This document shows positions 19,528-59,570 of a DNA stretch of 64,000 bases, piece by piece. How positions within the stretch are numbered: position 1 is the stretch's first letter; every line of letters starts with the position of its first letter. This DNA is from an uncultured Candidatus Saccharibacteria bacterium (GTDB lineage: Bacteria > Patescibacteriota > Minisyncoccia > Phycocordibacterales > WO2-35-19): positions 99,693-163,692 of the forward strand of contig CAZVUY010000002.1 in assembly GCA_964630525.1 (NCBI GenBank), written 5' to 3'. The notes beneath the pieces were generated by a model. That model made no database searches. It was given only the letters and a program-made list of their open reading frames with translations, and was not told the origin of the DNA. The position numbers and the translations under genes were made by a program.

Positions 19528-19548
19528 CTGTGTGGAGGGTGTTTCGCC

Positions 19549-39092: not shown

Positions 39093-41228
39093 ATGAAATT
39101 TGAGCTGAAGGCCAAATTTGATCCTGCCGGAGATCAGCCAAAAGCTATTGAAAAATTGGTGGCTGGTGTGCGAAAGGGCAAAGATCATCAAACACTGCTC
39201 GGGGTGACAGGGAGCGGCAAGACTTTTACTATTGCCAATGTGATAGAGAAGATCAATAAGCCGACTTTGGTCATTGCCCACAACAAAACCTTGGCCGCCC
39301 AACTCACTCAGGAATATCGAGAATTTTTCCCCAACAATGCTGTTCATTATTTTGTTTCTTATTACGATTTCTACCAGCCGGAAGCTTATATGCCGGTCAC
39401 CGATACTTATATAGAAAAAGAGGCAATGATCAATGAGGAGATCGAGCGGTTGCGCCACGCTTCGACCGAAGCTTTGCTCACCCGAAAAGATGTGATCATC
39501 GTGGCCTCTGTTTCTTGTATTTATGGCTTAGGTTCTCCGGAAGAATATGAAAAAGTGAATCTCAAAATCGAAGCGGAAAGCAAGATAAACCGAGCCGAGT
39601 TCTTACGAAAACTGATTTATATCCACTATGAGCGGACCAACGCTGACCTGACGCCCGGTACTTTTCGGGCGATCGGCAATATTATTGAGATCATGCCGGT
39701 CTCTGAAAAACAGGTTTATCGGCTTGAAGTGGTGGGCGACCAGATCAAATCTATCCAACAAATAGATGCTATTTCCAGAAGTATTTTGGCTGAACCGAAA
39801 GCTTTTTATCTTTTTCCGGCCAAGCATTTCATTACCGCCGAAGAAGATGTTAAAAGAGCGCTAAAATCGATCAAGGCTGAGTTGGCAGCACAACTTAAAA
39901 AATTTGAAAAAGAAGGCAAGCTTTTGGAGGCTGATCGACTAAAACGTCGCACTGGCTACGACCTCTCTATGATCAAAGAGGTTGGCTATTGCAACGGTAT
40001 CGAAAATTATTCCAGGCATTTTGATGGTCGCGAGGCGGGCGAACCACCTCACTCTCTGCTCTCTTATTTCCCAAAAGACAAAGATGGTAAGCCGGATTTT
40101 CTCACAGTGATCGATGAATCGCATGTCACCGTCTCTCAAATTGGTGGTATGTACGCCGGCGACGCCTCCAGAAAAGAAACCTTGATCGAGCATGGTTTTC
40201 GCTTGCCAAGCGCCAAAGACAATCGACCACTCAAGTTCCCTGAATTTACCGAACGGATTGGGCAGGTTATCTACACTTCAGCTACTCCGGGCAAATATGA
40301 ACTTGATAAAAGCGGGAAAGAAGGGGTGGCAGAACAAATCATTCGTCCGACAGGACTCTTGGATCCGGAAGTTTTCGTAAGACCGATCAGTCAGACCTCA
40401 CCCCCGACCCCTCTCCTTGGTAAGGAGAGGGGAGAAGTGGTTTTTTCTGATTCCCCCCTTAAGGTAAGGGGGGCTAGAGGGGATATGAATAAAAAAGCAG
40501 GTTACCCAGGCCAGATTCTCGATTTCATCAATGAGGCGGTGAAAGAAGTAAAGAAAGGCAATCGGGTTATTGCTACCACTCTTACCAAAAAGATGGCTGA
40601 GGATCTGTCTGAGTACTTAAAGGAAAAAAAGATTCGAGCTGAATATTTGCATAGTGATATCAAAACTATTGAAAGAATAGAAATTTTGACCAGGCTAAGA
40701 AAAGGGGAGTTTGATGTGTTGGTTGGGGTCAATCTCTTGCGAGAAGGTTTGGACCTGCCAGAAGTTTCTTTTATCGGCATTCTCGATGCAGACAAAGAGG
40801 GTTTTTTGCGAAGCGAAACTTCTTTGATTCAGACGATCGGTCGGGCAGCCCGCAACGTCGAGGGGCGAGTCATCCTTTATGCCGATCAGCTGACTGGTTC
40901 GATGGAGCGCGCAATCTCAGAAACAAATCGTCGGCGTGCTTTGCAGATCGCTTACAACAAAGCGCACGGTATCACGCCGCAGACCATCAAGAAAGAAATA
41001 AAAGATATCACCGAACAAATGCAACGAGAGCACAAAAAGGCGGTGGGTACGCTCCTTGCGATAGATTTGAAGAAGGGGGGCAAGGACGGACTCTCTGCTA
41101 AACAGGTGGCCAAATTGATCAAGACCAAAGAAAAACAAATGAACGCCGCCGTCAAAATCCTCGATTTCGAATCCGCCGCCATCCTCCGTGATGAGATTAA
41201 GGAATTGGAGAAAATGATCTCGGGCTAG
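39093..41228 (+). CDS. uvrB: excinuclease ABC subunit B with a ~39-aa in-frame insertion
   Basis: GVTGSGKTFTIAN Walker A, beta-hairpin region, C-terminal UvrC-interaction helix; insertion between VRP and QILDF relative to the canonical UvrB core. Confidence 0.9.
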   Translation: MKFELKAKFDPAGDQPKAIEKLVAGVRKGKDHQTLLGVTGSGKTFTIANVIEKINKPTLVIAHNKTLAAQLTQEYREFFPNNAVHYFVSYYDFYQPEAYMPVTDTYIEKEAMINEEIERLRHASTEALLTRKDVIIVASVSCIYGLGSPEEYEKVNLKIEAESKINRAEFLRKLIYIHYERTNADLTPGTFRAIGNIIEIMPVSEKQVYRLEVVGDQIKSIQQIDAISRSILAEPKAFYLFPAKHFITAEEDVKRALKSIKAELAAQLKKFEKEGKLLEADRLKRRTGYDLSMIKEVGYCNGIENYSRHFDGREAGEPPHSLLSYFPKDKDGKPDFLTVIDESHVTVSQIGGMYAGDASRKETLIEHGFRLPSAKDNRPLKFPEFTERIGQVIYTSATPGKYELDKSGKEGVAEQIIRPTGLLDPEVFVRPISQTSPPTPLLGKERGEVVFSDSPLKVRGARGDMNKKAGYPGQILDFINEAVKEVKKGNRVIATTLTKKMAEDLSEYLKEKKIRAEYLHSDIKTIERIEILTRLRKGEFDVLVGVNLLREGLDLPEVSFIGILDADKEGFLRSETSLIQTIGRAARNVEGRVILYADQLTGSMERAISETNRRRALQIAYNKAHGITPQTIKKEIKDITEQMQREHKKAVGTLLAIDLKKGGKDGLSAKQVAKLIKTKEKQMNAAVKILDFESAAILRDEIKELEKMISG
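40408..40473. repeat. two GC-rich perfect hairpins inside the uvrB CDS: CCCCTCTCC-TTGGTAA-GGAGAGGGG (40408-40432) and CCCCCCTTA-AGG-TAAGGGGGG (40453-40473)
   Basis: Read directly from the sequence; they encode the uvrB insertion segment. Confidence 0.8.
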
Positions 41229-46288: not shown

Positions 46289-46735
46289 ATGCAATTCCAT
46301 AATTTAAAAAGAAATACAGCGAATAGGAAAGCCAAACAAGTTGGTCGTGGGGGTACCAGGGGCAAGACTGCTGGTCGTGGTACCAAAGGTCAAAACGCTC
46401 GATCTGGACGCAAGAAAAGACCAGAGATGCGCGACTTCATAAAGAAGTTGCCCAAATTGCGTGGTCGCGGCAAGAACTTTCTAAAATCTCGTTTTGTAGA
46501 TGCAAAACCAATCAACCTTTCGGTAATAGACAATAATTTTAAAGCGGGAGAATTGGTAAATATCAAATCCTTGCTAGAGAAAAAATTGATTGAGCAGAAA
46601 AATGGTAAAAATCCAGTGGTCAAAATATTGGCAGCTGGTAAACTTACTAAGCCACTCAATTTTGAGCAGGTGGCAGTTTCCCTAAATGCTAAAAAAGCAA
46701 TAGAAACTGCTGGCGGGAAGATAACTAATGAATAA
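46289..46735 (+). CDS. rplO: 50S ribosomal protein L15; no L30 gene between S5 and L15
   Basis: Gly/Arg-rich L15 N-terminus. Confidence 0.9.
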   Translation: MQFHNLKRNTANRKAKQVGRGGTRGKTAGRGTKGQNARSGRKKRPEMRDFIKKLPKLRGRGKNFLKSRFVDAKPINLSVIDNNFKAGELVNIKSLLEKKLIEQKNGKNPVVKILAAGKLTKPLNFEQVAVSLNAKKAIETAGGKITNE

Positions 46736-47999
46736 TTTTGCTCACAAAATTAGACTGATTTTTGGCGACAAGGTCCTACGGGGCAGGATCTTGTTTACTC
46801 TTTTTGTGCTGGTGCTTTTTCGAATGCTCTCAACCATCCCGATTCCTGGTATCGATACTCTAAGGTTGGAGCAATTTGTTTCGGGTAATGATTTTTTGGG
46901 TCTTTTGAATATATTTTCTGGTGGCGGTCTGTCTAATCTTTCGATCATTATGCTCGGTGTTTCGCCGAGCATCACCGCCTCGATCATCATGCAGCTTTTG
47001 ACGGTGATGTTTCCTAAACTGAAAGCCATGTATCAAGAAGATGGGGAGGTGGGTCGTCGCAAATTTGCTCAGTACTCCAGATTGCTCACGGTGCCACTGG
47101 CCTTCATCCAGGGCTATGCTTTCGTTACCCTTTTGCAAAATCAGAGTATTCTGGCCAGACTAGCTCCTTTTGAGCTCATTACCAATATCATAATCATCAG
47201 TGCCGGTTCGCTGCTACTTATGTGGTTGGGTGAATTGATTAGTGAGTTTGGAGTCGGCAATGGTCTTTCTCTGATTATTTTTGCGGGTATCGTATCGGCT
47301 TTGCCGGGTGCTATCGGCCGATTGTGGTTTGCTTTCGACCCATCCCAACTACCTACCTACATAGGTTTTCTAGCTGCCACTTTGTTGGTGATTTGGGGAG
47401 TAGTAATGATCACCGAAGCTGAAAGACCAATCCCGGTAACTTATGCTAAGCAAGTGAGAGGCAACAAGGTTTATGGTGGGGTTTCTACTTATTTGCCACT
47501 TCGGGTCAATCAGGCTGGAGTGATCCCCATTATCTTCGCCCTTTCTATCTTGCTATTTCCTCAGATGATCGTCAGATTTCTAACCAATGTTGATAATGCA
47601 ATCGTACAAAAAGTGGCAAGCACCATACTCGCTCTCCTCTCTAACCAAACTTTTTATGGAGCAGCTTATTTCTTGTTAGTGTTTATGTTTACTTACTTCT
47701 ACACTGCTATTACTTTTGATCCTGATTCTATCGCCAAAAATTTGCAACGCAGTGGTGCTTTTATCCCTGGAGTGCGACCTGGTGTTTCTACCTCAGCCCA
47801 TATCGCAAAGACCCTCTTCCGTCTTACCATGGTTGGAGCTCTATTTTTGGGAGTGATCGCTGTTTTGCCGATCGCGGTCGGAGCTTTGACTGGTATCAAT
47901 GCGGTTACTATCGGTGGTACCGGGCTGTTGATCGTAGTTTCTGTAGTAATTGACCTGATGAAGAAGATCGAAACTCAAGTTTCAGCTAGGGAATATTAA
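46728..47999 (+). CDS. secY: preprotein translocase subunit SecY
   Basis: 10-TM SecY sequence. Confidence 0.95.
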   Translation: MNNFAHKIRLIFGDKVLRGRILFTLFVLVLFRMLSTIPIPGIDTLRLEQFVSGNDFLGLLNIFSGGGLSNLSIIMLGVSPSITASIIMQLLTVMFPKLKAMYQEDGEVGRRKFAQYSRLLTVPLAFIQGYAFVTLLQNQSILARLAPFELITNIIIISAGSLLLMWLGELISEFGVGNGLSLIIFAGIVSALPGAIGRLWFAFDPSQLPTYIGFLAATLLVIWGVVMITEAERPIPVTYAKQVRGNKVYGGVSTYLPLRVNQAGVIPIIFALSILLFPQMIVRFLTNVDNAIVQKVASTILALLSNQTFYGAAYFLLVFMFTYFYTAITFDPDSIAKNLQRSGAFIPGVRPGVSTSAHIAKTLFRLTMVGALFLGVIAVLPIAVGALTGINAVTIGGTGLLIVVSVVIDLMKKIETQVSAREY

Positions 48000-48000
48000 A

Positions 48001-48080
48001 AAGCTTAGAGCTAAAAGGTAAAAGCTTAGAGAATGAAATCAACACTTGCAACTTTAAGCTCTAAGCTCTAAGCTTTAAGC
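48001..48080. repeat. small palindromic element with AAGCTTAGAGC / GCTCTAAGCTT terminal inverted repeats, between secY and adk
   Basis: AAGCTTAGAGCTAAAAGG...AAGCTCTAAGCTCTAAGCTTTAAGCT; related copies at 55645-55720 and 59535-59570. Confidence 0.7.
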
Positions 48081-48081
48081 T

Positions 48082-48675
48082 ATGATGCAACCACAAACTT
48101 TCATATTCTTTGGTCCATCGGGTTCCGGCAAGGGGACTCAGGCCAAGCTTCTTATTGATAAAATTAAAGAAAAAGACAGCAGTAAACCTGTTTTATATGT
48201 AGAAACAGGTCAAAAACTTAGGGACTTTGCAACCGAAGCTTCTTTCGCCGCTCGAGAAGCCAAAAATATAATGGAGTCAGGCGGCCTGCTTCCAGAATTT
48301 TTGCCGATTTGGATCTGGACAGAATATTTTATTCGACATGTTGCAGGCGATGAGCACTTGGTACTTGACGGGCTTTCGAGGAGGGCTCATGAAGCACCTA
48401 TCCTTGATTCAGCCATGAAGTTTTACAAAAGAGAAAATCCTTTTGTGATTTCCATAGATTTGCCGCGCGAAGTGGCTGCAGATCGTTTGCGCAACCGCAA
48501 GAGAAGTGATGACACAAATCTTGATATCGAAAAGAGGCTTGACTGGTACGACGAAAATGTTTTACCTGCAATCGAATATTTCAAAAGAAATCCTTACTAT
48601 CGTTTTATTTCTATTGGTGGTGATCAAAGTGTTGAGGTGGTCCATCAGGAAATTTTGAATAAAATCGGCTTTTAA
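48082..48675 (+). CDS. adk: adenylate kinase
   Basis: GPSGSGKGTQ P-loop. Confidence 0.9.
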   Translation: MMQPQTFIFFGPSGSGKGTQAKLLIDKIKEKDSSKPVLYVETGQKLRDFATEASFAAREAKNIMESGGLLPEFLPIWIWTEYFIRHVAGDEHLVLDGLSRRAHEAPILDSAMKFYKRENPFVISIDLPREVAADRLRNRKRSDDTNLDIEKRLDWYDENVLPAIEYFKRNPYYRFISIGGDQSVEVVHQEILNKIGF

Positions 48676-48678
48676 TTT

Positions 48679-49455
48679 ATGGCTATTAGATACAAGACAG
48701 AAGAGCAAATAGCTATAATGAGAGAGGGGGGCAAGATTCATGCCCGGATCTTGAAAGAGGTGGCCAAAAAGGTAAAACCCGGGATCAAGACAGATGAGCT
48801 CAATGATTATGCTGAGAAGTTGATCGATGAGGCTGGCTGCACTGCGTCTTTTTTGGGCTACCAACCCTATGATGCGAAGCGTCCGTATCCCGCTTCCCTC
48901 TGTGTATCAATCAACGAAGAGATTGTTCACGGTATTCCAAACGAAGGTGGTAGGTTGTTGTTTGAGGGCGATATCGTGACGCTTGATTTGGGTCTGACTT
49001 ACAACAATTTGATCACTGATGCGGCGATCACGGTACCTGTCGGCAAGGTTAGCAAAGAGGCAGAAACTTTGATTAAAGCAACGAGAGAGGCATTGGACCG
49101 GGGTATCTCTGCTATGCGCGTACGCGGCCATATCGGTGACATTGGTGAAGCGGTGATGCAAGTGGCGATGAAATATGATCTTGGGATTATCGAAGGCCTT
49201 TCTGGCCACGGGGTCGGTTTTGATGTGCACGAAGACCCTTTTGTACCAAACAGAGCCGAGCGGGGTGAAGGCCCAGAGATAAAGGCTGGTTTGGTGATCG
49301 CTATTGAGCCGATGCTTTCGCTTGGGAGCCGCGATGTGAAGCGGCTTTCTGATGGCTACACTTTTATCACTCGAGACAAATCACTCTCAGCTCACTTTGA
49401 ACATACTGTGGCGGTGGGTTATGATGGTAAGGTCGAAGTACTCACCAGGCTTTAG
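48679..49455 (+). CDS. map: methionine aminopeptidase type I
   Basis: Pita-bread fold metal ligands; position after adk. Confidence 0.9.
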   Translation: MAIRYKTEEQIAIMREGGKIHARILKEVAKKVKPGIKTDELNDYAEKLIDEAGCTASFLGYQPYDAKRPYPASLCVSINEEIVHGIPNEGGRLLFEGDIVTLDLGLTYNNLITDAAITVPVGKVSKEAETLIKATREALDRGISAMRVRGHIGDIGEAVMQVAMKYDLGIIEGLSGHGVGFDVHEDPFVPNRAERGEGPEIKAGLVIAIEPMLSLGSRDVKRLSDGYTFITRDKSLSAHFEHTVAVGYDGKVEVLTRL

Positions 49456-49495
49456 TAAGCTGTTGGGTCAATTAGAAATTAGAGCAATTTATCCT

Positions 49496-50101
49496 ATGGC
49501 GCACTATAAAGAAGAACGCACCTTGGTTGTTATTAAACCAGATGGTATCCAACGATCGTTGATTGGTGAAATTATAAAAAGGTATGAGAGACTGGGTCTT
49601 AAACTGGTTGCTACCAAAATGTTGGTCACTACTCCAGAATTTATTGAAAAGCATTACACTCTTGATCCAGCTTGGCGTAAAGTCACCGGAGAGAAGACAA
49701 TCAAGGGTTACAAAGACAAAGGTCTAACACCCCCGTCTGAGGATCCTTTTGAGATTACTGACAAAATTCTTACTAATTTAAAACACTATATGACAAGTGG
49801 TCCAGTGATTGCGATGGTTTGGCAAGGAGCTCACGCTGTCAAAATAGTTCGCAAAGTTACTGGAGGTACCGAACCGTTATCGACCGATGTGGGGAGTATC
49901 AGGGGTGACTTTGTAGTTGATTCATACCAGATGTCAGATACTGACAACCGAGCCATTAGGAACTTGATCCATGCGTCAGGTTCGGTGGAGGAAGCGGAGA
50001 ATGAGATAAAACACTGGTTTAAAGAAGGAGAAATCGTCAATTATCGCTTAGTGGGAGAACAAATACTTTATGATGTAAATCTTGACGGTATTTTAGAGTA
50101 A
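49496..50101 (+). CDS. ndk: nucleoside diphosphate kinase with an internal insertion
   Basis: VVIKPDG, catalytic-His region and SD...NxIHASGS motifs; about 200 aa versus a typical ~140. Confidence 0.85.
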   Translation: MAHYKEERTLVVIKPDGIQRSLIGEIIKRYERLGLKLVATKMLVTTPEFIEKHYTLDPAWRKVTGEKTIKGYKDKGLTPPSEDPFEITDKILTNLKHYMTSGPVIAMVWQGAHAVKIVRKVTGGTEPLSTDVGSIRGDFVVDSYQMSDTDNRAIRNLIHASGSVEEAENEIKHWFKEGEIVNYRLVGEQILYDVNLDGILE

Positions 50102-50302
50102 TCTATTTTATCGGAACATATTATCTACTGTTTTTGAACTATTAAACTAACCTGATTTTGTTATAATTGCCTCAGGGTTACTCGGATATTTTCTAGATTG
50201 CACATATTCAGGGAGGCTAACTTTTTGCGGTAAATATGCCGTGATCGAGGCCACCCACCTAATATTTTTCAATTAGGGAATTATACTGGGTAACCCCACA
50301 AG

Positions 50303-50331
50303 GAGGCTCGTCCTAAAAGACGAGTTTTCTT
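50303..50331 (+). terminator. rho-independent terminator in the ndk-downstream intergenic region
   Basis: CTCGTC-CTAAAA-GACGAG followed by TTTTCTT. Confidence 0.5.
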
Positions 50332-50376
50332 GTAAAACACAATAGCTCAAGAATCGGTTTGTGGTAAGATAACAGT

Positions 50377-50808
50377 ATGTTAAGAAAACCGCTTTTTTTG
50401 GAGATGTTTGCCCTGCTCCTCATTGTCGGGGTAGTTAATTATTTTGCTACCGTTTATAATCTTTACTGGTCAGTCAATGAATTAGATAGTGTAGTGCACT
50501 TTCTGGGGGGTGCTAGTTTGGCTGCTTTTTTTCTGTGGTTATATTTTTTCTCTGGTTTTTTTAATCCGAGAGATAGGGGACTAGCTAGATTTTTTTTCGT
50601 TGCAATGATTGGATCTTTGGCGATCGCGGTTGCTTGGGAAGCGTACGAGCTCTTGCTTGGTGAAGCGGTGATCCAAAAAGCGGCTTATCCTTATGACACG
50701 ACACTCGACTTCATTATGGATTTTTTGGGGATGGTAGCGGTGACTTTTTATGGTTATTTGAGAGAAATCAATTTTAAGAAAATCACTATTCAACAAAATG
50801 AAGGTTAA
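50377..50808 (+). CDS. polytopic membrane protein of unknown function
   Basis: Four hydrophobic helices. Confidence 0.4.
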   Translation: MLRKPLFLEMFALLLIVGVVNYFATVYNLYWSVNELDSVVHFLGGASLAAFFLWLYFFSGFFNPRDRGLARFFFVAMIGSLAIAVAWEAYELLLGEAVIQKAAYPYDTTLDFIMDFLGMVAVTFYGYLREINFKKITIQQNEG

Positions 50809-52186
50809 TTCGAAATTAATTTTTTATGGCGGGGTCGGGACAACAACTGGGGCCAACATTTTGCTTGATGGTGGTGACAAAAAAATAATGGTTGATTGCG
50901 GACTCCTGCAAGGAGCTAGACAATCTGAAATGAAGAATTTTAAACCTTTTGCTTATGACCCTAAATCTATCGATTTTTTGCTTATTACCCACGCCCACAT
51001 GGACCATATAGGCAGAGTACCCAAATTAGTCAGGGAGGGTTTCAATGGCCAGATCATCTCTACTCAGGAGACCTTGGAGCTTGCCCAACCAATGCTCCAG
51101 GATGCTCTCCGGGTGATGCAGACTAGACACAAAGGCAGCACTCTTTTTGAGCTGAAGGATATCGAAAAAGCGCTTACCCTCTGGCGGGGCTATAAATACG
51201 GTGAAGTGATCGGTTTGGGTCAGTCTTGCCAACTTAGCATGATAGATGCTGGTCATATCCTCGGTTCGGCCATTTTAAACATTACTTGTGGTGATGGGGA
51301 AAATAAGAAAAATATTGTTTTTACTGGCGACCTAGGCAATTCACCATCGCCTCTTTTGTCAGATACTCAAATTCCCAAAGACGCAGATTATTTGATAATG
51401 GAGAGTGTCTATGGCGATCGCAATCATGAACCCAAGGCGGAAAGACGGGCCAGATTAAAACAAGCAATTCTGAATGGTATCGAGAAAGGGGGGACGATTG
51501 TTATTCCAGCATTTTCGATCGAACGAACCCAGGTGTTGCTCTACGAAATAAACAATATGGTGGAAGACAAAGAAATTCCGACTATACCGGTTTTTCTGGA
51601 CTCACCATTAGCTAGCAAAGTTACTCATATTTATAAAAAGCATCAAGACAATTTCAAAAAATCGGTCCAGGAAGAGATCAAAAATGGCGATGATATTTTT
51701 GATTTCCCGAATCTCAAAATAATCGGCCGGTCAGCTGAGTCGCGAGAAATCGAAAACGTGAAGGGAGCTAAGATTATTTTGGCTGGTTCGGGTATGTCAG
51801 AGGGTGGGAGGGTGGTCAATCACGAGCTCAATTATCTAGGCGACCCGAAAGCCACTATTCTCTTGGTCGGATATCAGTCGGTCGGGTCGCTCGGTAGAAA
51901 AATAGCCGAAAAACCAAAAGAAATTGAAATAGTGGATAATGGTCGGCGAGAAAAAATAAAAGTCAGAGCCACAATAGAAAGTATTATGGGCTATTCTTCC
52001 CACAAAGACTCCGAGCATCTTTTGGAATTTGTCGAGCAGGTGATCAGCAAGTCTGCCCATCTCAAGAAAGTTTTTGTGATTATGGGCGAACCTAAATCCT
52101 CTCTTTTTCTCACTCAACGCGTCCGCGACTATCTAGATATCGAAGCTATTTATCCGGAAGTGGGAAAGGAGTATATTTTGGAGTGA
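50798..52186 (+). CDS. beta-CASP family MBL-fold ribonuclease (RNase J/CPSF-like)
   Basis: ITHAHMDHIGRVP HxHxDH motif, beta-CASP and C-terminal region, about 460 aa. Confidence 0.75.
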   Translation: MKVNSKLIFYGGVGTTTGANILLDGGDKKIMVDCGLLQGARQSEMKNFKPFAYDPKSIDFLLITHAHMDHIGRVPKLVREGFNGQIISTQETLELAQPMLQDALRVMQTRHKGSTLFELKDIEKALTLWRGYKYGEVIGLGQSCQLSMIDAGHILGSAILNITCGDGENKKNIVFTGDLGNSPSPLLSDTQIPKDADYLIMESVYGDRNHEPKAERRARLKQAILNGIEKGGTIVIPAFSIERTQVLLYEINNMVEDKEIPTIPVFLDSPLASKVTHIYKKHQDNFKKSVQEEIKNGDDIFDFPNLKIIGRSAESREIENVKGAKIILAGSGMSEGGRVVNHELNYLGDPKATILLVGYQSVGSLGRKIAEKPKEIEIVDNGRREKIKVRATIESIMGYSSHKDSEHLLEFVEQVISKSAHLKKVFVIMGEPKSSLFLTQRVRDYLDIEAIYPEVGKEYILE

Positions 52187-52198
52187 AAACATGCTAGT

Positions 52199-52429
52199 AT
52201 GATATTTATGAAAAGGGAATTTACAGCTATATATAAAAAAAGCGGAAATTGGTTTCTGGCTTGGGTAGAAGAAATTCCTGGTGTAAATACTCAAGGTAGG
52301 ACATTGAAAGAAGTAAAAGAAAACCTAAAAGAAGCTATTCGGCTTGTCATTGAATCGAATAGAAACATCTATTCCGGCAAATTTGCCGATCTTAAAAGAG
52401 AACCAATATCAATAAAAATGTCGGTCTAA
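52199..52429 (+). CDS. hicB: HicB-family antitoxin
   Basis: EFTAIYKKSGNWFLAWVEEIPGVNTQGRTLKEVKENLKEAI is the UPF0150/HicB fold signature. Confidence 0.7.
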   Translation: MIFMKREFTAIYKKSGNWFLAWVEEIPGVNTQGRTLKEVKENLKEAIRLVIESNRNIYSGKFADLKREPISIKMSV

Positions 52430-52430
52430 A

Positions 52431-52625
52431 ATGAAAAGACTGAAGTTTGTTTTGCATCTAAATTTTTATCACTGCATTTTGATCAGAGAAGGGGCTAAAC
52501 ATTCTGTTTTCTACAATACAAAAACGGGACAAACATCAACCGTACCAAGACATTCTGAAATAAATAATTTTCTTGCTCGCAAAATTTGCCGAGATTTGGG
52601 GATACCAATAATAAAACTAAGATAG
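52431..52625 (+). CDS. hicA: HicA-family mRNA interferase toxin
   Basis: 64-aa basic protein with ...TVPRHSEINNFLARKICRDLGIP; starts 2 nt after the hicB stop. Confidence 0.65.
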   Translation: MKRLKFVLHLNFYHCILIREGAKHSVFYNTKTGQTSTVPRHSEINNFLARKICRDLGIPIIKLR

Positions 52626-52638
52626 AGTAATAAAAGCC

Positions 52639-52660
52639 CCGCGTCTGGTGAAGGACGCGA
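52639..52660. terminator. bidirectional hairpin between convergent hicA and rny
   Basis: CGCGTC-N8-GACGCG; U-rich on the minus side. Confidence 0.5.
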
Positions 52661-52694
52661 GGCGAGGTGAAGTTTAATAGCGTAGGTTTTGAGG

Positions 52695-54227
52695 TTACCT
52701 CGCAAATTCGATGGTGCGGGATTCGCGGATGACGACGACTTTGATTTCGCCTGGGTATTTGAGTTCATTTTCGATACGGACGGCGATATCGCGAGCCATG
52801 TTCTTGGCTTCTAGGTCGGTGACTTGAGCTGGAGTGACGAACACCCGCAGCTCGCGACCAGCCTGGAGGGCGTAAGCCTTTTCGACCCCGGTGATTGCAG
52901 TGGCGATCGATTCGAGGTCACCAAGTCGTTTTAGATAATTTTCCACACTGTCTCTTCTTGCCCCTGGTCTGGCTCCAGAAATAGCGTCAGCGGCTTGGAC
53001 GATATAAGATTCTAGAGTGGAATAAGGATATTCGCCGTGGTGGGATTCCATGGCACGAATGATCCGCTCATCTGCCCCAAATTTTTGAAGGATTCGGCGA
53101 CCGATTTCAACATGGGTACCAGCGATCTCGTGGTCTACGGCTTTGCCGATATCGTGAAGGAGAGCACCCGCTTTGGCGATGGCGACATTGGCACCTATTT
53201 CAGTAGCGATCATGCCCGCTACGTGTGCCATCTCAACTGAGTGTTGGAGAACATTTTGGCCGTAAGAAGTGCGGAAATGGAGGCGACCAAGTATGCTAAT
53301 AATTCGAGGATCCAAGTTGAAGACACCGCATTCGTAAGCGGCTTGTTCACCCTTTTCTTTCATTATTTTGTTAATTTCCTGTCTCGCTTTTTCAACCATT
53401 TCTTCTATTTTGGCTGGCTGAATACGACCGTCTTGGATAAGGTTTTCAAGGGCTACCCGAGCGATCTGGCGACGTACTGAGTCATACGAGGAGAGGGTGA
53501 TCAGGCCTGGTGTATCATCTACTATCACTTCTACTCCGGAAGCTCTCTCAAAAGCTTTGATGTTGCGACCCTCTTTACCGATAATTTTACCCTTGATTTC
53601 ATCAGAAGGGATGGCGACCGTGGTCGAGAAGACTTCAGATGATACAGAATTGGCCAATCGCTGGATTGAGGTGGTCAGTATCTCTTTGGCACGATTTTCA
53701 ATCTTTTCGTTGCCGCCATTTTCTAATTTTTGCATCCTAACGATCACGTCCTCTTCCGCTTTGCGCTCGATTTCCTTCATCAACAGGTCTTTGGCTTGTT
53801 CTTCGGAAAGGCCGGCTATCCTCTGCAAATCAGCTGTCTTCTGCTTTTCTAGAGACTCTGCTTTTTCACGAATGATTTTTATTTCGGCTACTCTTTCTTT
53901 GACCTGCTCTACTTCTTTGTCGATATCAAGTTGTCTTTTGTCCAAGAATTCCTCTTTTTTGATCAGGCGATCTTCGGTCTTTTTTAACTTTTCTTCTTTC
54001 TCTTTAAACTCATTCCTGGTTTCTTTGGCTAATTCTTCAGCCTTGGTGGTCGCTTCCTCGATGATCTTCTTGGCCTCTTCCTTGGCGTGCAGCTCCATCT
54101 GCTTGATGCGCAACTCTACCGAACCTCTTTGGCCCAACGAAATGATCCAGCGCAAGAAATACCCAAAAGCCACACCCAATAGGGCAGCTAGACCTGAGAG
54201 CAGTATCGCTAACTTTAATGACAGCAT
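52695..54227 (-). CDS. rny: ribonuclease Y
   Basis: N-terminal TM, coiled coil, KH domain, HD domain (LLHDIGKAVDHE). Confidence 0.9.
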   Translation of the reverse strand: MLSLKLAILLSGLAALLGVAFGYFLRWIISLGQRGSVELRIKQMELHAKEEAKKIIEEATTKAEELAKETRNEFKEKEEKLKKTEDRLIKKEEFLDKRQLDIDKEVEQVKERVAEIKIIREKAESLEKQKTADLQRIAGLSEEQAKDLLMKEIERKAEEDVIVRMQKLENGGNEKIENRAKEILTTSIQRLANSVSSEVFSTTVAIPSDEIKGKIIGKEGRNIKAFERASGVEVIVDDTPGLITLSSYDSVRRQIARVALENLIQDGRIQPAKIEEMVEKARQEINKIMKEKGEQAAYECGVFNLDPRIISILGRLHFRTSYGQNVLQHSVEMAHVAGMIATEIGANVAIAKAGALLHDIGKAVDHEIAGTHVEIGRRILQKFGADERIIRAMESHHGEYPYSTLESYIVQAADAISGARPGARRDSVENYLKRLGDLESIATAITGVEKAYALQAGRELRVFVTPAQVTDLEAKNMARDIAVRIENELKYPGEIKVVVIRESRTIEFAR

Positions 54228-54382
54228 ATATTTGACTGTAATTCCGTCCAGGTTTTAGAAAAATAACGAGATTTTATTTATTTTTAGGTAAACTAAGCTC
54301 ATTTCAGGTGAAAAATCAGACGAAATCACTAATTTAAATGTTAATGAAGATATTATACAAACTTTAGCCAAAAAGGCAAAAT

Positions 54383-54958
54383 TTAGAGAATTTTGTCGAC
54401 AATACCGTATTTCTTGGCTTCCTCGGCTGACATGAAGAAATCTCTCTCTACATCAGCTTCTATTTTTGATAGCGGCTGACCCGTATGTTCGGCTAGCATT
54501 TTGTTGAGGTTATCCTTTGTTTTTAGGATATGTTTGGCTGAAATTGCGATATCAGTGGCCTGACCTTCCGCGCCGCCTAGAGGTTGGTGGATCATGACTT
54601 CTGCATTTGGCAAGATAAATCTTTTACCTTTGGCACCGGCGGAAAGTATCATGGCTGCACCGGAGGCAGCGATACCGATACAATAGACTGCCACATCGGG
54701 CTTGATAAACTTCATAGTATCTATTATGGCCAAAGTCGAAGTGACAGAGCCTCCGGGTGAATTGATATAGACAGAGATGTCTTTTTTCGCATCTTCTGCC
54801 TGCAAGAAAAGCATCTGGGCGATTATAAGATTGGCCATGGTATCTTCAATCGGACCGCCCAAAAAGATGATTCTATCTTTCAAAAGGCGAGAGTAAATAT
54901 CATAAGCTCGCTCTCCTTGATGGGTCTTTTCGATCACTGTTGGTACTAAAATACTCAT
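54383..54958 (-). CDS. clpP: ATP-dependent Clp protease proteolytic subunit
   Basis: Canonical ClpP sequence. Confidence 0.95.
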
Positions 54959-54976
54959 ATGTTTGTTTAATTTGTA

Positions 54977-55092
54977 ACTTACGCAAAATAGTCCTTAAGC
55001 GAGATTCCGGAAGCTGCTGGAAAGCTGAGGACAAGGAAATTTTTAGCAAAAAATTTCCGTATCGAGCGAAAGGAGCTATTTTGCGTAAGTGT
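54977..55092. repeat. nested inverted repeats in the clpP/rsmE divergent leader: outer 15/16-bp arms AACTTACGCAAAATAG / CTATTTTGCGTAAGTG enclosing an inner hairpin GGAAATTTTT-AGCA-AAAAATTTCC
   Basis: Read directly from the sequence. Confidence 0.6.
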
Positions 55093-55152
55093 TAATTACT
55101 AAGGTCAACAATATAGCATAAATTTGGCTTTTGCGCTAGGATAAAGATACCA

Positions 55153-55887
55153 ATGAGACTGCATCGTTTTTTTGTTGATTTCAATATTTCTCAGACTGAA
55201 TTTAGTGTTAAGGATGAGCGCCTAGTTCATCAATGGCGCAATGTGTTTAGATACAATACCGGTAGCGAGCTAATTCTTTTTGATGGCAGCGGGTACGAAT
55301 ACGACTGCTTGATTCAGAACCTAAACAACAGGGAAGCTGTTTTAGAAGTGGTTAGAAAAAGAGAGGGGGTTTTGCCAAAACATAAAATTACTCTCTACCA
55401 ATCAATCATCAAGAAGGACAAAATGGAATGGATAGTCGAAAAGGCGACTGAGCTTGGAGTTTCCAAAATCGTACCAATCATTTCTGAAAGGAGCGAGAAA
55501 AAAGATTTGAATCTGGAGCGAATGCAAAAAATTGCGATTGAGGCTGCTGAACAATGCGGTAGGGCGGATGTACCAATTATCAGCGATGTTACAAGTTTAG
55601 ATGAGGCTTTAAAATATTGTGAAAATGCGGTGACTTGTGATTTGTCTGGAAGCTTAGAGCTAAAAGCTGAAAGCTTAAAGAAAACTCTTAGCTCTAAGCT
55701 TAAACCTCTAAGCTTGTTCGTCGGTCCTGAAGGTGGTTGGTCTGACAATGAGATTGAGCTATTTAAGCAAAAAGGAGTGCAAATATTTAGTTTGGGAAAG
55801 CTTACCCTAAGAGCAGAAACGGTCGCTATTGTAGGTTTGTCAAAAATTCAGACCTCAAACCAGCTACTAATTTTCCAAAAGCTTTAG
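55153..55887 (+). CDS. rsmE: 16S rRNA m3U1498 methyltransferase
   Basis: RsmE N-terminal PUA-like and C-terminal SPOUT motifs (GPEGGW). Confidence 0.8.
   Translation: MRLHRFFVDFNISQTEFSVKDERLVHQWRNVFRYNTGSELILFDGSGYEYDCLIQNLNNREAVLEVVRKREGVLPKHKITLYQSIIKKDKMEWIVEKATELGVSKIVPIISERSEKKDLNLERMQKIAIEAAEQCGRADVPIISDVTSLDEALKYCENAVTCDLSGSLELKAESLKKTLSSKLKPLSLFVGPEGGWSDNEIELFKQKGVQIFSLGKLTLRAETVAIVGLSKIQTSNQLLIFQKL
55645..55720. repeat. copy of the AAGCTTAGAGCT palindromic element inside the rsmE CDS
   Basis: AAGCTTAGAGCTAAAAGCTGAAAGCTTAAAG...CTTAGCTCTAAGCTTAAACCTCTAAGCTT; its first 17 nt match 48001-48017 exactly. Confidence 0.7.
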
Positions 55888-56937
55888 CACCTCTTGATTA
55901 AGGAGGACTGTAGTTACGTAAACACGTGCATTTTGTTCGCTTGCGTCTTTATAGTGGTCTAAAATATGCTTTACTTCCTGTTCCAAAATTTCTTTATTCG
56001 GTTCTAGTTTTTCTACCTCTGCTATTTTGTTAAATATAAGTTGGATTTTGGCCTTCTTTTCCGAAGAGTCTCTCAAATCTTTTTTCAAATCCTCCTCCGT
56101 TTTTTTAGTATGCGTTAGATAATCTTCCCATTTTCCTCCAATTCGAGTTATATCGTCTTTCATTTGAGCAAGAGACTTGTTTATTTCGCTTTCTATCAAA
56201 ATATCCGGCACTTCAATTTTTGTATTTTTTAGAAGTTCCTCCATTAGCTCTGCGCGCCTTTTCTCATGCTCCTTGTGTTTTTTGTCTTCAATTATATTTT
56301 GCTTCACTTTTTCCTTTAGCTCGTCCAAGTTTTTGAAATTGCCCGCAGATTTTGCAAGTTCATCGTCAAGTGGTGGCAAATTTTCCGGCTTTTCTAAATC
56401 TACTCCTGCGTGATCGTGATTTTTGTCTTCAGGGTTATTCTTATGCCAATCAATGTGCGCTTTATTTTTCCTAATTTGCAAAAGCACCTCATCAACTTCT
56501 TTTTCTGTCGCCTCAATTTTTTCTTCTTTCCTAGATGCTGACTGCTTGCTACTAACTGCTATTTTCTTGTAATCAGGCAAATCAAAAATGGGAAGCACGG
56601 GGAAGTTTGCTTTAAATTCAAGCGGATTACCGAGCGCCAATTTGGTTATAGAAATTTTTGGGCTTCCCAAAATATCGAACTTCTCTTGCTCTACGATTTT
56701 AGGAAAATGTTCTTTGAGTAAAATATCAGCTACTTCTTCCAACAGCCCTCCCTCTCCTACTTTTTCGATTACCACATTTTCTGGTATGTGGCCTTTTCTA
56801 AACCCATCTATATTTAAAGAGTTGCTAAAATTTTGAATGGCTTTCTTCCTTGCTCCATCCAGTAAATCAGCAGGCAAAGAAACCTCTATCTCCACCTCCG
56901 ACTTAGGCAACTTTTTAGTTTTTATATTGTATTGCAT
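55867..56937 (-). CDS. tig: trigger factor, short form (PPIase domain apparently absent)
   Basis: N-terminal ribosome-binding motif GFRKGHIP; C-terminal helical domain. Confidence 0.8.
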   Translation of the reverse strand: MQYNIKTKKLPKSEVEIEVSLPADLLDGARKKAIQNFSNSLNIDGFRKGHIPENVVIEKVGEGGLLEEVADILLKEHFPKIVEQEKFDILGSPKISITKLALGNPLEFKANFPVLPIFDLPDYKKIAVSSKQSASRKEEKIEATEKEVDEVLLQIRKNKAHIDWHKNNPEDKNHDHAGVDLEKPENLPPLDDELAKSAGNFKNLDELKEKVKQNIIEDKKHKEHEKRRAELMEELLKNTKIEVPDILIESEINKSLAQMKDDITRIGGKWEDYLTHTKKTEEDLKKDLRDSSEKKAKIQLIFNKIAEVEKLEPNKEILEQEVKHILDHYKDASEQNARVYVTTVLLNQEVLKLLEN

Positions 56938-57127
56938 TCAAATAAATTAACACAAATTATTAAAAACACAAGGTCAATTTTAAATAAAAACCTGATTTTA
57001 AGTAGAGATATACAAAAAACCACGACCGTGGGAAAGTGTATAAAACACCTTTTTAGCAAACTACTAATTAATTTTGTATCCAATCATCCAATTTTAAAGA
57101 GCGCCTACCTGCCACAGATAGACGCTC

Positions 57128-57421
57128 TTACTTACCCCAGTGAGGGGCTCTTTCACGAAAAAATCTAGCTACGTCAGGGGTGAGGTGGAACCAAAACTTT
57201 GAAAAACATTTATGGCATTCAAAAATCGCAATTCCTACCCGTGCATTGCTCTCAGAAGTTTCCGGTCGAGCTCCCTCTGTAGTAAATCCAACTAGAAGCG
57301 GTATGCGTGCTTGAAGATTGAATGGTAGGTCAGCTCCACAACTACACTCGTGGTCAACTCCGTGGTGCATATCTGACGAGAAAGTTGTGCCCCAAGTCTT
57401 GAATTCCATACTTATCACCAA
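57128..57421 (-). CDS. small Cys/His-containing hypothetical protein
   Basis: ORF only; HxxxHECSCG and CHKC clusters. Confidence 0.3.
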   Translation of the reverse strand: MVISMEFKTWGTTFSSDMHHGVDHECSCGADLPFNLQARIPLLVGFTTEGARPETSESNARVGIAIFECHKCFSKFWFHLTPDVARFFRERAPHWGK

Positions 57422-57496
57422 CCTTTCTTACTTGAATTTAATCTAATTTAACTTAAAAATCAACTTTTATTTCATAAAAAGAATTAGAACATAAAA

Positions 57497-57517
57497 TGTC
57501 AAAGACCGTCTTTGACA
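57497..57517 (-). terminator. hairpin TGTCAAAGAC-C-GTCTTTGACA immediately 3' of the xer stop
   Basis: 10-bp perfect stem; U-rich tail on the minus strand; stem nearly identical to the 27771 hairpin. Confidence 0.5.
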
Positions 57518-58444
57518 CTAGCGTCTGCTGTGGAATTTTTTGTGGATGTCGCGGAGGTGGCGGTCGGTGACATGAGTGTAGATCTGGGTGGTGCCGATAT
57601 TGGCGTGGCCGAGGAGAGCTTGGACAGAACGCAAATCAGCACCGTTCCCAAGCAAGTCGGTGGCAAACATGTGGCGCATGGTGTGAGGAGTCACTTTTTT
57701 AGAGATACCAGCTTTGATAGCGCGCTGTTTGATAATCCGCTCTATCGAGCGCCCTGTGAGGCCGATATTACCTTTTCTTTGTTTGGTAGTTTTGCCGTTG
57801 CGAGAGAGCTGGACAAAGAGGGCTTCATCGAGATCTTTTCTTTTGTCTAAATATTTTTTCAAAATTTTCTTGGCTTCATCAGAAATGAAGACGACCCGCA
57901 CCTTGCTACCTTTGCCGCGGATAGAAAGTTCGTCGGTTGAAAGGTCGAGGTCGCGAGTGAGCGAACAGAGTTCGGAGACTCGCAGCCCAGTGGAGAAAAG
58001 TAGTTCCAAGATGGCTCGATCTCGCAGATCAGTGATTTCTTCGCCATCGGCAGAAGCGAGGAGCCTTTTCAATTCCGCTTCAGTGATCAGTTCGAGTGAA
58101 CGCTCGGGCACCTTGGCGAGCTCGATCCGCTCGGCGGGCAGAGTCTTTATTTCTTGCCGAGCCAAGTATTTGAGAAAAGCGCGGAGAGCGATCAAATAAT
58201 AATTTTGAGTTTTTTTCGATATAGTATCGCTGGTTTTCTTGTTTTTGCCGGTCACTTGTCGGTTGAGCCAAAGGCGGAATTCGCGCACCGCGTCATCGCT
58301 TATGTCGGCGGGGGATTTGAGACCTGTGTGTTCCAAAAATACACTCAAGTAATGATCATAATTTTCGACCGTCTTCAGCGATCGCCCTTTTTCGATTTCC
58401 ACATATTCGAGAAATTGTCTTTTGAGTTGTTGTAAGTCTTTCAT
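57518..58444 (-). CDS. xerC: tyrosine recombinase XerC/XerD family
   Basis: R...HxxR...Y catalytic region HTMRHMFATDLL...LLGHANIGTTQIYTHV. Confidence 0.85.
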   Translation of the reverse strand: MKDLQQLKRQFLEYVEIEKGRSLKTVENYDHYLSVFLEHTGLKSPADISDDAVREFRLWLNRQVTGKNKKTSDTISKKTQNYYLIALRAFLKYLARQEIKTLPAERIELAKVPERSLELITEAELKRLLASADGEEITDLRDRAILELLFSTGLRVSELCSLTRDLDLSTDELSIRGKGSKVRVVFISDEAKKILKKYLDKRKDLDEALFVQLSRNGKTTKQRKGNIGLTGRSIERIIKQRAIKAGISKKVTPHTMRHMFATDLLGNGADLRSVQALLGHANIGTTQIYTHVTDRHLRDIHKKFHSRR

Positions 58445-58578
58445 AATAACCTCACTCCTCGCTATCGCGCAGACCCCCCTTTTTGGTCAGGAGAGGGAAG
58501 AGGGAAATAGAATTGTACCATATTTTAATGTCGTAAAATAAATAAAAAGTTGGGGAAAGGTTTGTTATGAAAAGAGAT

Positions 58579-58608
58579 AGGCCGCCTCGCGCATGCGCGA
58601 GGCGGCCT
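58579..58608 (-). terminator. perfect palindrome AGGCCGCCTCGCGCATGCGCGAGGCGGCCT
   Basis: Immediately downstream of the 58613-59092 gene. Confidence 0.6.
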
Positions 58609-58612
58609 TAGA

Positions 58613-59092
58613 TTATCCGAGCGCTTCCACCGGGTCGTAGTTTCTCACGGCTTCACATAAAGCCGCGAGCTTTACCGCATCCAATTCTTTTGCCAGTTCT
58701 GAATTTGTCCCTCGACGGATTGTTATCGGCAGAGTTTTTTGGTGGGGTCTGATCTCAACCCCCAGCAGCCTACTCCCCTTTGTGGGATGAAAAGCGTAAG
58801 AATCAACAACTACCATCTTTACGAAGTCGGTGCTGATTTTGTGCACTCGCAACTTCGCAGGCCGGTTTTCATTCGCTGCCCTTTTGAGGGCTTCTGAGAT
58901 TTGCATGAGAAGCTCTTGCCCAGTCCTCTCTCTCAGAAGGGTGTAGGCTCTCCGTTTTTTCTTTCGCCGGACTCTTTTTGTGAGAACGGCGATGCCGAGT
59001 ATCCCTAGAAGTAACATTACCTCAAGGACCATTCCAACGGGGGATATGAGGAAATCCCCCAAGTTAAGCATCATCTTCTCGAAATTTCTCAT
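58613..59092 (-). CDS. membrane-anchored hypothetical protein, GC-richer
   Basis: N-terminal TM, basic stretch KRVRRKKKRR. Confidence 0.4.
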   Translation of the reverse strand: MRNFEKMMLNLGDFLISPVGMVLEVMLLLGILGIAVLTKRVRRKKKRRAYTLLRERTGQELLMQISEALKRAANENRPAKLRVHKISTDFVKMVVVDSYAFHPTKGSRLLGVEIRPHQKTLPITIRRGTNSELAKELDAVKLAALCEAVRNYDPVEALG

Positions 59093-59231
59093 CAGGTGCC
59101 TCCTGTTCCATACTCTAAACTATTATTAATAATATGTCAAATTTTGGCATTGGCTGGCTAGCAGAGGGGGTCGGTGAGGGGTTTTGGGTGAACTTGCACA
59201 AAAAAGGCTTTCGTGATATCCTTTAAGCACA

Positions 59232-59504
59232 ATGTTAACCAAAAATAAAAAGCAAAAAATTATCAAAGAGGTCAAAATCCACGACAAAGACACCGGTTCC
59301 CCGGAGGTGCAGATAGCGGTCCTTTCTCGTCGAATCGATGATTTGACTTCTCATTTGAAGAAAAACAAGAACGATAAGCACTCTCGTCGAGGTCTTCTAA
59401 GTCTGGTGGCTGACCGCAAGGCTCACTTGAAGTATCTAGAGAAAAAAGACACAAAGAGGTATAATTCTCTCGTTAAGAAGCTAGGATTGAAGAAAGCTGC
59501 TTAA
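59232..59504 (+). CDS. rpsO: 30S ribosomal protein S15
   Basis: Canonical S15 sequence. Confidence 0.9.
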   Translation: MLTKNKKQKIIKEVKIHDKDTGSPEVQIAVLSRRIDDLTSHLKKNKNDKHSRRGLLSLVADRKAHLKYLEKKDTKRYNSLVKKLGLKKAA

Positions 59505-59534
59505 TTTTTAATAAAAAAGTTTGAAACTATATGC

Positions 59535-59570
59535 CAAAAGCTTTTAGCTTCAAGCTCTAAGCTAATTTTT
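59535..59570. repeat. third, shorter copy of the AGCTCTAAGCT-type palindromic element
   Basis: AAGCTTTTAGCTTCAAGCTCTAAGCT. Confidence 0.5.

Follow-up and report, generated by a model that had tools for sequence, protein, structure and literature searches.

The stretch of contig CAZVUY010000002.1 analysed here (64,000 nucleotides from an uncultured Candidatus Saccharibacteria bacterium, called the window throughout) contains a family of dispersed imperfect palindromes of about 65-85 nt, which lie between genes and also, in frame, inside genes. Each arm is made of 3-5 tandem heptamers, RAGCTWA on one arm and TWAGCTY on the other (AAGCT family). We consider it probable that these palindromes are a dispersed, non-autonomous hairpin repeat of the same kind as repetitive extragenic palindromes (REPs), miniature transposable elements with inverted repeats (MITEs) and Rickettsia palindromic elements (RPEs), that they are filtered into spacers and tolerant protein loops, that they change by heptamer slippage, and that their hairpins are preferred sites for replacement by, or nesting of, other palindromes. 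The family is apparently undescribed in Patescibacteria: full-text literature searches covering Patescibacteria and the candidate phyla radiation turned up no account of elements like these.

Seven matches to AAGCTTAGAGCT (at most one mismatch, both strands) were found in the window, at positions 48001, 48057, 48064, 55650, 55690, 55704 and 59553. All fall within the three sites singled out by an earlier, sequence-only reading of this DNA. The mean in 100 dinucleotide shuffles was 0.40 and no shuffle reached seven, so the motif is far above chance frequency; a match to chance is what the earlier reading had named as a result that would refute it. The 11-nt core of the motif, AGCTCTAAGCT, is the top repeated non-low-complexity 11-mer of the window (6 occurrences). 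Avoidance of HindIII-like AAGCTT words was ruled out, with 37 occurrences against about 20 expected (hand estimate from base composition). The copies and the genes that hold or adjoin them are as follows.

48001-48081, no strand: copy A, complete, 81 nt, filling the entire secY-adk spacer
48001-48033, no strand: left arm of copy A, AAGCTTA GAGCTAA AAGGTAA AAGCTTA GAGAA
48050-48081, no strand: right arm of copy A, containing (TAAGCTC)2 TAAGCTT TAAGCT
55650-55715, forward strand: copy B, complete, 66 nt, in frame in rsmE, encoding SLELKAESLKKTLSSKLKPLS, after which the protein continues with LFVGPEGG
55650-55680 (left) and 55685-55715 (right), forward strand: arms of copy B, 31 nt each, 77% complementary, 4 nt apart
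59535-59564, no strand: copy C, a short degenerate right-arm-like piece of about 30 nt (AAAAGCTTTTAGCTTCAAGCTCTAAGCTAA) in the rpsO-NYN spacer
59504 (rpsO stop) and 59572 (NYN ATG), no strand: limits of the rpsO-NYN spacer, read from the sequence
13330-13399, forward strand: copy D, decayed, missed by the sequence-only reading, in frame in the M50/RseP gene, encoding AESLKLKAKSENSPTSNPQPLS
55153-55887, forward strand: rsmE, 16S rRNA U1498 methyltransferase with PUA and SPOUT domains (Pfam PF04452, 8e-47; PDB relatives 1VHK and 1VHY)
13110-14237, forward strand: M50/RseP site-2 protease (Pfam PF02163, 1.7e-52)
46728-47999, forward strand: secY, upstream of copy A, stop codon at 47997-47999 (Pfam PF00344, 1e-98)
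48082-48675, forward strand: adk (Pfam PF00406), its start codon (ATG 48082) abutting the 3' end of copy A

All three sites of the sequence-only reading are thus present, with limits corrected to 48001-48081 and 55650-55715. The site between rpsO and the NYN gene proved to be only a fragment, and the three do not span the family, as copy D lies outside their range. Two further claims stood as made: copy B is read in frame before the GPEGG motif, and the 17-nt AAGCTTAGAGCTAAAAG occurs exactly at both 48001 and 55650. Over a longer stretch, the left arms of these two copies are identical at 30 of 33 nt, with the heptamer variants in the same order. In a lag-7 type scan, the window contained seven period-7 tandem arrays, versus 0.4 in shuffles, and none of periods 8-12. 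Tandem Repeats Finder reported period 7 at 48055-48081 (3.9 copies, 95% matches, unit (TAAGCTC)n), 55650-55680 (4.4 copies, (AAGCTTA)n), 55685-55714 (4.3 copies, (CTCTAAG)n) and 13330-13360 (4.4 copies), with a second array of unit CTCCAAC at 13369-13392.

Within the complete copies, the arms are 77-81% complementary. Since these arms are runs of heptamers, the single-stranded DNA or RNA folds as a long, slippable hairpin. Folded as single-stranded DNA and compared with shuffles, copy A gave z = -2.6 (-15.2 kcal/mol) and copy B z = -3.4. The fold of copy C is not significant (z = -1.2); over 26 nt, this copy is 88% complementary to each of the left arms that start at 48002 and 55651. In copy D, the left arm, AAGCTGA AAGTTTA AAGCTAA AAGCTAA AAG, is still (AAGCTNA)n and matches the left-arm repeat family at 73%, whereas drift has turned the right arm into CTCCAAC CTCTAAC CCCCAAC CTCTTAGCTT; copy D no longer forms the hairpin (z = +0.4). 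Three successive units of this right arm carry the same G-to-C change, indicating that a mutated unit was amplified. Relative to the heptamers, copy D has the phase of the rsmE copy (AESLKLKAKS...).

The genic copies are read in the one forward frame that is free of stops (frame 2 in copy B), and none of the six frames of the intergenic copy A is open. Such a pattern would be expected if insertion hits any phase and only stop-free copies survive in genes. Copy A is bounded by ...AAAA before AGCTTAGAG and by TTAAGC after CTCTAAGCT, and copy B by TCTGGA before AGCTTAGAG and TGTTC after CTCTAAGCT. No GTAG or CGTC tetranucleotide is present at the ends of the complete copies.

The rsmE site was compared across 50 aligned RsmE orthologs and, at the DNA level, 13 orthologous loci (proteins of relatives bear P numbers below, loci L numbers). 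Copy B occupies a loop that is hypervariable and is framed by two conserved motifs, FDxSG and LS(I/L)F(I/V)GPEGG, and its last codons provide the conserved (P)LSLF of the strand leading to GPEGG. The compared stretch is 35-37 residues long in the shortest orthologs, 41 in the window and at most 61 elsewhere; the net gain of the loop over the shortest forms is 4-6 residues in the window and up to 13 in relatives. Only some of the 50 orthologs carry the segment; its presence in all of them is what the sequence-only reading had named as a result that would refute it. The peptide ESLELKAxSLE...SSKLxxLS is found in P0001-P0004, P0006, P0009, P0011, P0027 and P0089, and in degenerate form in P0008 and P0017. 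At the same place, other orthologs have other peptides: (M/L)NHESRIMNH...SLHNSYF, PNPLPEGEGAGGG, TSPPTPLLxKERGE or TSGV...TPEV. In the DNA of the 13 loci, all AAGCT-type loops are heptamer-array hairpins, with TCTGGA before (GAA)AGCTTAGAG at the left junction and (G/A)TT after CTCTAAGCTT at the right one. The NHES-type loops in L005 and L006 are (AATCATG)-type arrays. The baseline loop of L013 has neither a palindrome nor an AGCT word, and does not fold.

In the AlphaFold model of RsmE (mean pLDDT, the predicted local distance difference test score, 86), residues 171-180 have a mean pLDDT of 50 and lie between the confident strands 159-167 and 186-190; the element-encoded segment has almost no secondary structure. 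This low-confidence loop between confident strands suggests an insertion on the surface that the fold can accommodate. Against distant solved RsmE structures, the window region is not longer than usual, and the sequence at that position is unrelated. Since the region is no longer than in these structures, the element replaces a variable loop and does not add 22 residues (66 nt) to it.

The second protein site behaves in a similar way. The RseP stretch from the FGGFVKIFGE motif to AGVxFN has 56 residues in the window, versus about 45 in representatives of 50% identity, and among 120 closer orthologs its variable part ranges from 12 to 75 residues. The RsmE-type peptide family (ESLELKAxSLE...SSKLxxLS), for example EEAESLELKAESKKSEDFSKAPSSKLQPLSF, is carried by 12 of the 120. 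Other loop families were KEQKHTVPALGHKDKALGTV (9 orthologs), SLRSQDATHISLQE (9), the STD.../STSQG type (10), the SPQE.../ENFP type (20) and GC-palindrome types (PLxxGEG, KERG; 7); 36 loops were short, and certain long ones are composites of several families. In the RseP of P0272, whose backbone is 92% identical to that of the window, the loop lacks exactly the 7 residues LKLKAKS, that is 21 nt or three heptamers. Homologs of RsmE and RseP from named sources belong to Candidatus Zambryskibacteria, Candidatus Paceibacterota and the Patescibacteria group, at about 56-64% identity. The bacterium that carries the window is a Patescibacterium of Paceibacteria type. The exact RsmE protein of the window is present on Logan contigs from SRR13355620 and SRR13355622.

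Several observations argue for copying over independent origin: the shared unit order of copies A and B, the same arms at non-homologous loci, one peptide family in two unrelated proteins across many lineages, patchy loops, and DNA similarity limited to the element. For RsmE, backbone identities were computed with the loop masked; differences in presence or absence are differences between protein sequences only. RsmE backbones that bear the AAGCT element share about 60% identity, and AAGCT-bearing RseP backbones average 67% identity. Closer pairs differ in their loops: in RsmE, P0027 (element) and P0014 (element-free) have backbones 88.7% identical, P0011 (AAGCT family) and P0021 (AATCATG family) 84.2%, and P0009 (element) and P0029 (element-free) 79.9%. 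Similarly, loops differ within the RseP pairs P0274/P0273 (98% identical backbones), P0296/P0330 (91%) and P0332/P0337 (94%). The patchy presence among close RsmE backbones contradicts vertical inheritance of the rsmE element from one ancient insertion.

DNA identity between orthologs is 73-87% in the element, 60-68% in the remaining gene and 48-72% in the flanking 30 codons. Similarity ends at the element borders, which argues against the transfer of larger alleles by recombination. Movement of element-bearing alleles by homologous recombination was rejected, since similarity in the flanks does not exceed that in the remaining gene. Arms of the family also occur at loci that are non-homologous to those of the window. 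In L014, AAGCTTAGAGCTTGGAGGTGAGAG lies at 5306-5337 and a complement matching at 22 of 23 positions at 6117-6150; in L005, arms of the AAGCT family are found at other loci, at 6488 and 8700-8725.

The L014 arms, of an AAGCT/CCTCYAA heptamer family, are about 800 bp apart and flank a DUF5680 cassette. This cassette has terminators of its own and is situated between a beta-CASP gene and an RNase Y gene that converge. The cassette is not a transposase; either it was inserted into the loop of a hairpin, or the arms are the ends of a small mobile unit. The corresponding arms in L005 are at 5590-5610 and 6480-6500.

Several points weigh against copying from place to place. Only four copies are visible in 64 kb, and no direct repeat that could represent a target-site duplication flanks either complete copy. 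Among about 50 window open reading frames scanned with Pfam, no Y1/HUH or DDE transposase was detected, and none appeared in the gene tables of the related loci, which cover about 150 kb. Transposase-like genes with matching terminal repeats, which the sequence-only reading had proposed to look for, were likewise not found in these open reading frames and gene tables, nor was a parent insertion sequence with such repeats. A scan of two collections that do not include the source genome, GTDB genomes and JGI metagenomes, for AAGCTTAGAGC-N(25-55)-GCTCTAAGCTT gave 3 GTDB and 5 JGI loci, which, except for L008, were unrelated palindromes sharing the ends; further copies were not recovered. Arrays made from a single consensus unit will resemble each other at about 75-85% even if they share no recent ancestor, so that less can be drawn from the 73-87% DNA identity of the elements, and the heptamer unit could be seeded locally by native codons, for example those of E-S-L (GAA AGC TTA). 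Finally, the rsmE genes of L005 and L014 are about 90% identical, and their loops align on the left and differ by in-place indels in a 7-periodic array. These indels, the 21-nt difference in RseP and the amplified G-to-C unit of copy D show that heptamer arrays expand, contract and homogenise locally, whatever seeded them.

L008 contains, at 684-754, a 71-nt hairpin of AAGCTTA/GAGCTGA/GTGCTTA-type heptamers with ends as in the window family. Its contig, 5 kb long with a GC content of 0.32 and binned as Campylobacterales, may come from a relative that was put in the wrong bin; alternatively, the architecture may not be confined to Patescibacteria. Nothing relevant came from two scans of viral contigs, and a 51-residue query of concatenated element-encoded peptides gave no candidates in the protein database.

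A rival explanation is an origin in place, without mobility: polymerase slippage would start from native codons, inversion would follow by intrastrand template switching (quasi-palindrome correction), and likeness across loci would reflect a shared mutational bias to AGCT-type heptamers. The enrichment is specific to period 7 and involves several units that are not related to each other (AATCATG at 8203-8250, CTCCAAC at 13369-13392), and the short RsmE loop of L014, whose left side aligns with the longer L005 loop, is itself 7-periodic. The RseP difference between the window and P0272 is a whole number of units, and conserved native residues are found at two of the junctions, the left one in RseP (EE-A-ESL) and the right one in RsmE (PLSLF). 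Heptameric repeats have been documented as over-represented in bacteria, with polymerase slippage as an explanation (PMC4692102). However, bias and slippage do not readily give two window copies the same order of unit variants over 33 nt, or a peptide of about 25 residues with the same junctions in two unrelated proteins and in backbones 60-67% identical, when the closest relatives are without it. AAGCT-family arms in spacers of a different lineage and the L013 baseline loop, which has no AGCT word and does not fold, also argue against it. On balance we find an origin in place unlikely.

In the copying account, the established hairpin itself would attract other palindromes, and several other families were encountered. 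The sequence-only reading had cited uvrB as a companion case. UvrB (gene 39093-41228) does have a clean in-frame insertion of 40 residues, 433-472 (window 40389-40508), without counterpart in solved UvrB structures, and its DNA is palindromic; however, it belongs to a GC-rich family that differs from the AAGCT family. A perfect palindrome, CCCCTCTCCTTGGTAAGGAGAGGGG, lies at 40408-40432 and a second palindrome at 40453-40473. The encoded TSPPTPLLGKERGE is of the peptide family also found in the RsmE loop of other lineages (P0005, P0023 and P0082). Palindromes of this GC-rich type (CCCCTCTCC...GGAGAGGGG) are also intergenic, at 28796-28821 in the window, followed by CTAGGAGTGAGGT (CTAG), and at 11843-11868 and 12283-12308 in L013, followed by GTAGGGGGTGAGGT (GTAG). 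By its sequence, the GC-rich palindrome looks like a classical GTAG-type REP common to Paceibacteria lineages, distinct from the AAGCT family.

Another heptamer family, (AATCATG)3, whose inverted partner has decayed, lies at 8203-8250 in the def-fmt spacer and overlaps the start of fmt (8222, minus strand). The AATCATG unit encodes the MNHESRIMNH-type RsmE loops of P0007, P0021, P0028, P0042, P0062, P0070, P0086 and P0104. Heptamer-like arrays within fmt, at 7965-7997 and 7706-7767, were rejected as family members, because Fmt aligns residue for residue with solved structures and has no insertion. In the rsmE of L006 (4291-5055, P0104 lineage), the GC-rich palindrome CCCCCTCCCTGAAGGGGAGGGGG is nested in the loop of an AATCATG-type heptamer hairpin, and the nested elements read in frame throughout as ...MNHDIAPSPNPLPEGEGAGGGENSSLHNSNSIIHNS....

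A bolder proposal is that Paceibacteria possess a hairpin-targeted replacement system without a known transposase, in which a small pool of palindrome families, several of them heptamer-built, would again and again be written into the same landing-pad loops of essential proteins (RsmE, RseP, UvrB) and the same operon spacers; we rate this as unlikely. If true, loop content would turn over far faster than the backbone, as in the RseP pair with 98% identical backbones and different loops. Single-stranded DNA would then move, or sequence be exchanged on a template, in a new way, and the core proteins of ultra-small bacteria would have their surfaces varied systematically.

The palindromes might instead be functional cis-elements kept by selection, either RNA stem-loops acting in mRNA stability, processing or translational coupling inside operons, or protein binding sites. 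The best support comes from the secY-adk spacer, which has a hairpin in four of four lineages, with a different sequence in each (window 48000-48081, L003 3194-3324, L005 947-990, L014 278-379), as would be expected of a structure conserved without its sequence. In addition, copy A ends exactly at the adk start codon. Against this, no copy matched an Rfam family, and no terminator-like site or T-run was found at the copies. Among six distinct rsmE elements, none of the 22 stem pairs showed two-sided compensatory change; several stem changes in orthologs are compatible with G-U pairing on the sense strand, but these (10) hardly exceed those that break the stem (9), about the chance level. Nor do the arms evolve in concert: comparing the left arm with the reverse-complemented right arm gives 0.58-0.88 inside one element and 0.75 across elements. 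Selection on RNA or DNA structure was therefore rejected for lack of compensatory pairs and of concerted arm evolution within elements.

The element of copy B is 100% identical in L010 and L011, whose rsmE DNA is 89% and 85% identical, which could also speak for a functional element. Divergence of rsmE from these two loci is mosaic, however, with 0-4 mismatches per 60 nt centrally versus 16-22 near the ends, which points to related populations having recombined. Divergence is only 3-4% in the block that holds the element, so that its identity is only weakly unexpected: the probability of zero changes is about 0.03-0.08, and the perfect identity is weakly informative as a sign of constraint. 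The RseP copy has moreover lost its hairpin, and a regulatory hairpin in loops of unrelated proteins has no obvious rationale. Thus, we regard selected cis-elements as a distinctly improbable explanation.

As a side observation on the same spacer, the right arm of the L014 secY-adk hairpin, CTGGATTCCAGATTCTAGCTTC, resembles the 7-periodic RsmE loop of that genome, CTGGATTCTAGATTCAAGCTTC. This parallels the window, whose spacer and RsmE loop have one family in common.

Selection could also act on the peptide, with an amphipathic ESLELKAKSLE...SSKLQALS module recruited in RsmE and RseP and the DNA palindrome as a by-product. The peptide is conserved across lineages in the two proteins, and the DNA is more conserved than the flanking codons. 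There are nevertheless complete and partial copies in spacers that encode no protein, every frame of copy A being closed by stops, and the loops in question take up peptides from many unrelated palindromes, or no such peptide. The low AlphaFold confidence and near-absence of secondary structure in the segment, and the unrelated sequence of distant RsmE homologs at this position, point the same way. We consider this explanation very unlikely indeed.

For the dispersed hairpin repeat that we favour, the following course of events can be proposed. Copies would arise through a copying process, not independently at each site, and would propagate while single-stranded DNA forms hairpins during replication, either by transposition or through a switch of template. 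They would persist only where harmless, in spacers of co-directional genes or in protein surface loops in a single stop-free frame, where the element would be translated as the ESLELKAxSLE...SSKLxxLS peptide. Once established, a copy could change its length by heptamer slippage, with only multiples of three units (21 nt) preserving the frame. Other palindrome families would preferentially land on an existing hairpin or replace it, which would explain why different families occur in the same RsmE and RseP loops of close relatives. The sequence-only reading had concluded that palindromes in this genome invade coding sequence in frame. Their residence in rsmE, RseP and uvrB is supported; as for invasion, mobility is what we infer from distribution only.

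The only recombinases among the scanned open reading frames of the window are a large serine recombinase beside a tRNA (3125-4855, forward strand) and an XerC/D-like protein (57518-58444). Near the former lie a LOOT RNA (Rfam RF03000, 53 bits) at 1528-1639 on the minus strand and an HTH (helix-turn-helix)/DnaD-like gene. The 3' end of the recombinase gene overlaps the tRNA gene (4817-4888, minus strand), and a 34-nt piece of the tRNA (4866-4899) is duplicated 185 nt away, at 5051-5084, with 97% identity. This region may be an integrated element with an att-like duplication. In L014, at 18167-19538 between rsmE and tig, a bAvd gene adjoins a reverse transcriptase (RVT_1), a signature of diversity-generating retroelements. 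The window also contains two full-length MreB paralogs (10868-11908 and 15647-16717), together with MreC and two class B penicillin-binding proteins within 17 kb.

The tiny, streamlined genomes of Patescibacteria are expected to purge selfish DNA, yet several palindrome families reside inside essential genes. Such elements inflate and diversify the hypervariable loops of core proteins and can therefore confuse alignments, phylogenies and structure predictions. Hairpins can also break assemblies; the Logan contigs with rsmE begin 110 bp upstream of the gene.

Compared with known systems, the family falls outside REPs (by tags and size), MITEs (by target duplication) and RPEs (by size and tag), though it is of their kind. 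Heptanucleotide repeats of cyanobacteria (short tandemly repeated repetitive sequences, STRRs) and small dispersed repeats of Nostoc have reportedly been described by Mazel in 1990 and Elhai in 2008. The window arrays resemble STRRs in their tandem 7-nt units, with 3.9-4.4 copies where STRRs are defined by at least 3, and small mobile palindromes nested in heptamer arrays recall the situation in L006. They differ in unit sequence and phylum; moreover, STRRs are described as simple direct intergenic arrays, whereas the window arrays form inverted pairs, two copies of which are translated. PARCEL elements, which also combine dyad-symmetric DNA with amphipathic peptides, were rejected because they are tandem 25-residue domains in dedicated open reading frames of unknown function, and not single hairpins scattered over spacers and the loops of housekeeping genes.

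Bacterial MITEs (Correia/NEMIS, Nezha, Coxiella QMITE) are small, have terminal inverted repeats and occasionally form in-frame fusions with host open reading frames (PMC10969869). The window family is similar in having terminal inverted repeats, no open reading frame of its own, and presence or absence between relatives, and its 66-81 nt fall at the lower limit of the 70-300 bp range. Unlike MITEs, it shows neither target-site duplication nor a parent insertion sequence in the sequences covered, and the entire element is a hairpin without unique core.

Intragenic REPs are known, notably in replication and repair genes, and different REPs occur at about the same recB site in related species (PMC3733652, PMC10969869). 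The likeness to REPs lies in short extragenic, sometimes intragenic palindromes, and the GC-rich palindromes of uvrB and 28796 look like the classical GTAG type. A REP is, however, a single stem-loop of 20-40 bp with a stem of 5-13 bp, whereas the AAGCT elements, 66 and 81 nt with composite arms of about 30 nt, are 2-3 times longer. They are also AT-rich, lack a GTAG or CGTC tag and have heptamer-array arms. REP-associated tyrosine transposases (RAYTs) are single-copy genes; none was seen among the Pfam-scanned window open reading frames, which cover only 64 kb of the genome, or in the related-locus gene tables.

A close parallel is with RPEs, palindromic elements that lie between genes and in frame in conserved housekeeping genes of Rickettsia, where the extra peptide is tolerated on the protein surface (PMC10969869, PMC3733652), and that carry a CGTC tag (PMC3733652). 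Both occur in reduced genomes, and the window family too is present in spacers and, with a family-specific peptide, in frame in rsmE and RseP. RPEs are about 100-150 bp long, CGTC-tagged and not made of tandem heptamers, whereas the window family is 66-81 nt, untagged, 7-periodic and from an unrelated phylum; it was set apart from RPE-1 to RPE-10 by size and tag. In the window family, one loop is held by different palindrome families in close relatives, which to our knowledge is undescribed for RPEs. Altogether, the classic Rickettsia observation has a parallel here in an unrelated reduced lineage. The same few families in the same loops, with arms of 7-nt units and no recognisable transposase, offer a tractable case for how very short palindromes spread, a question that is the same for CGTC-type REPs and for RPEs.

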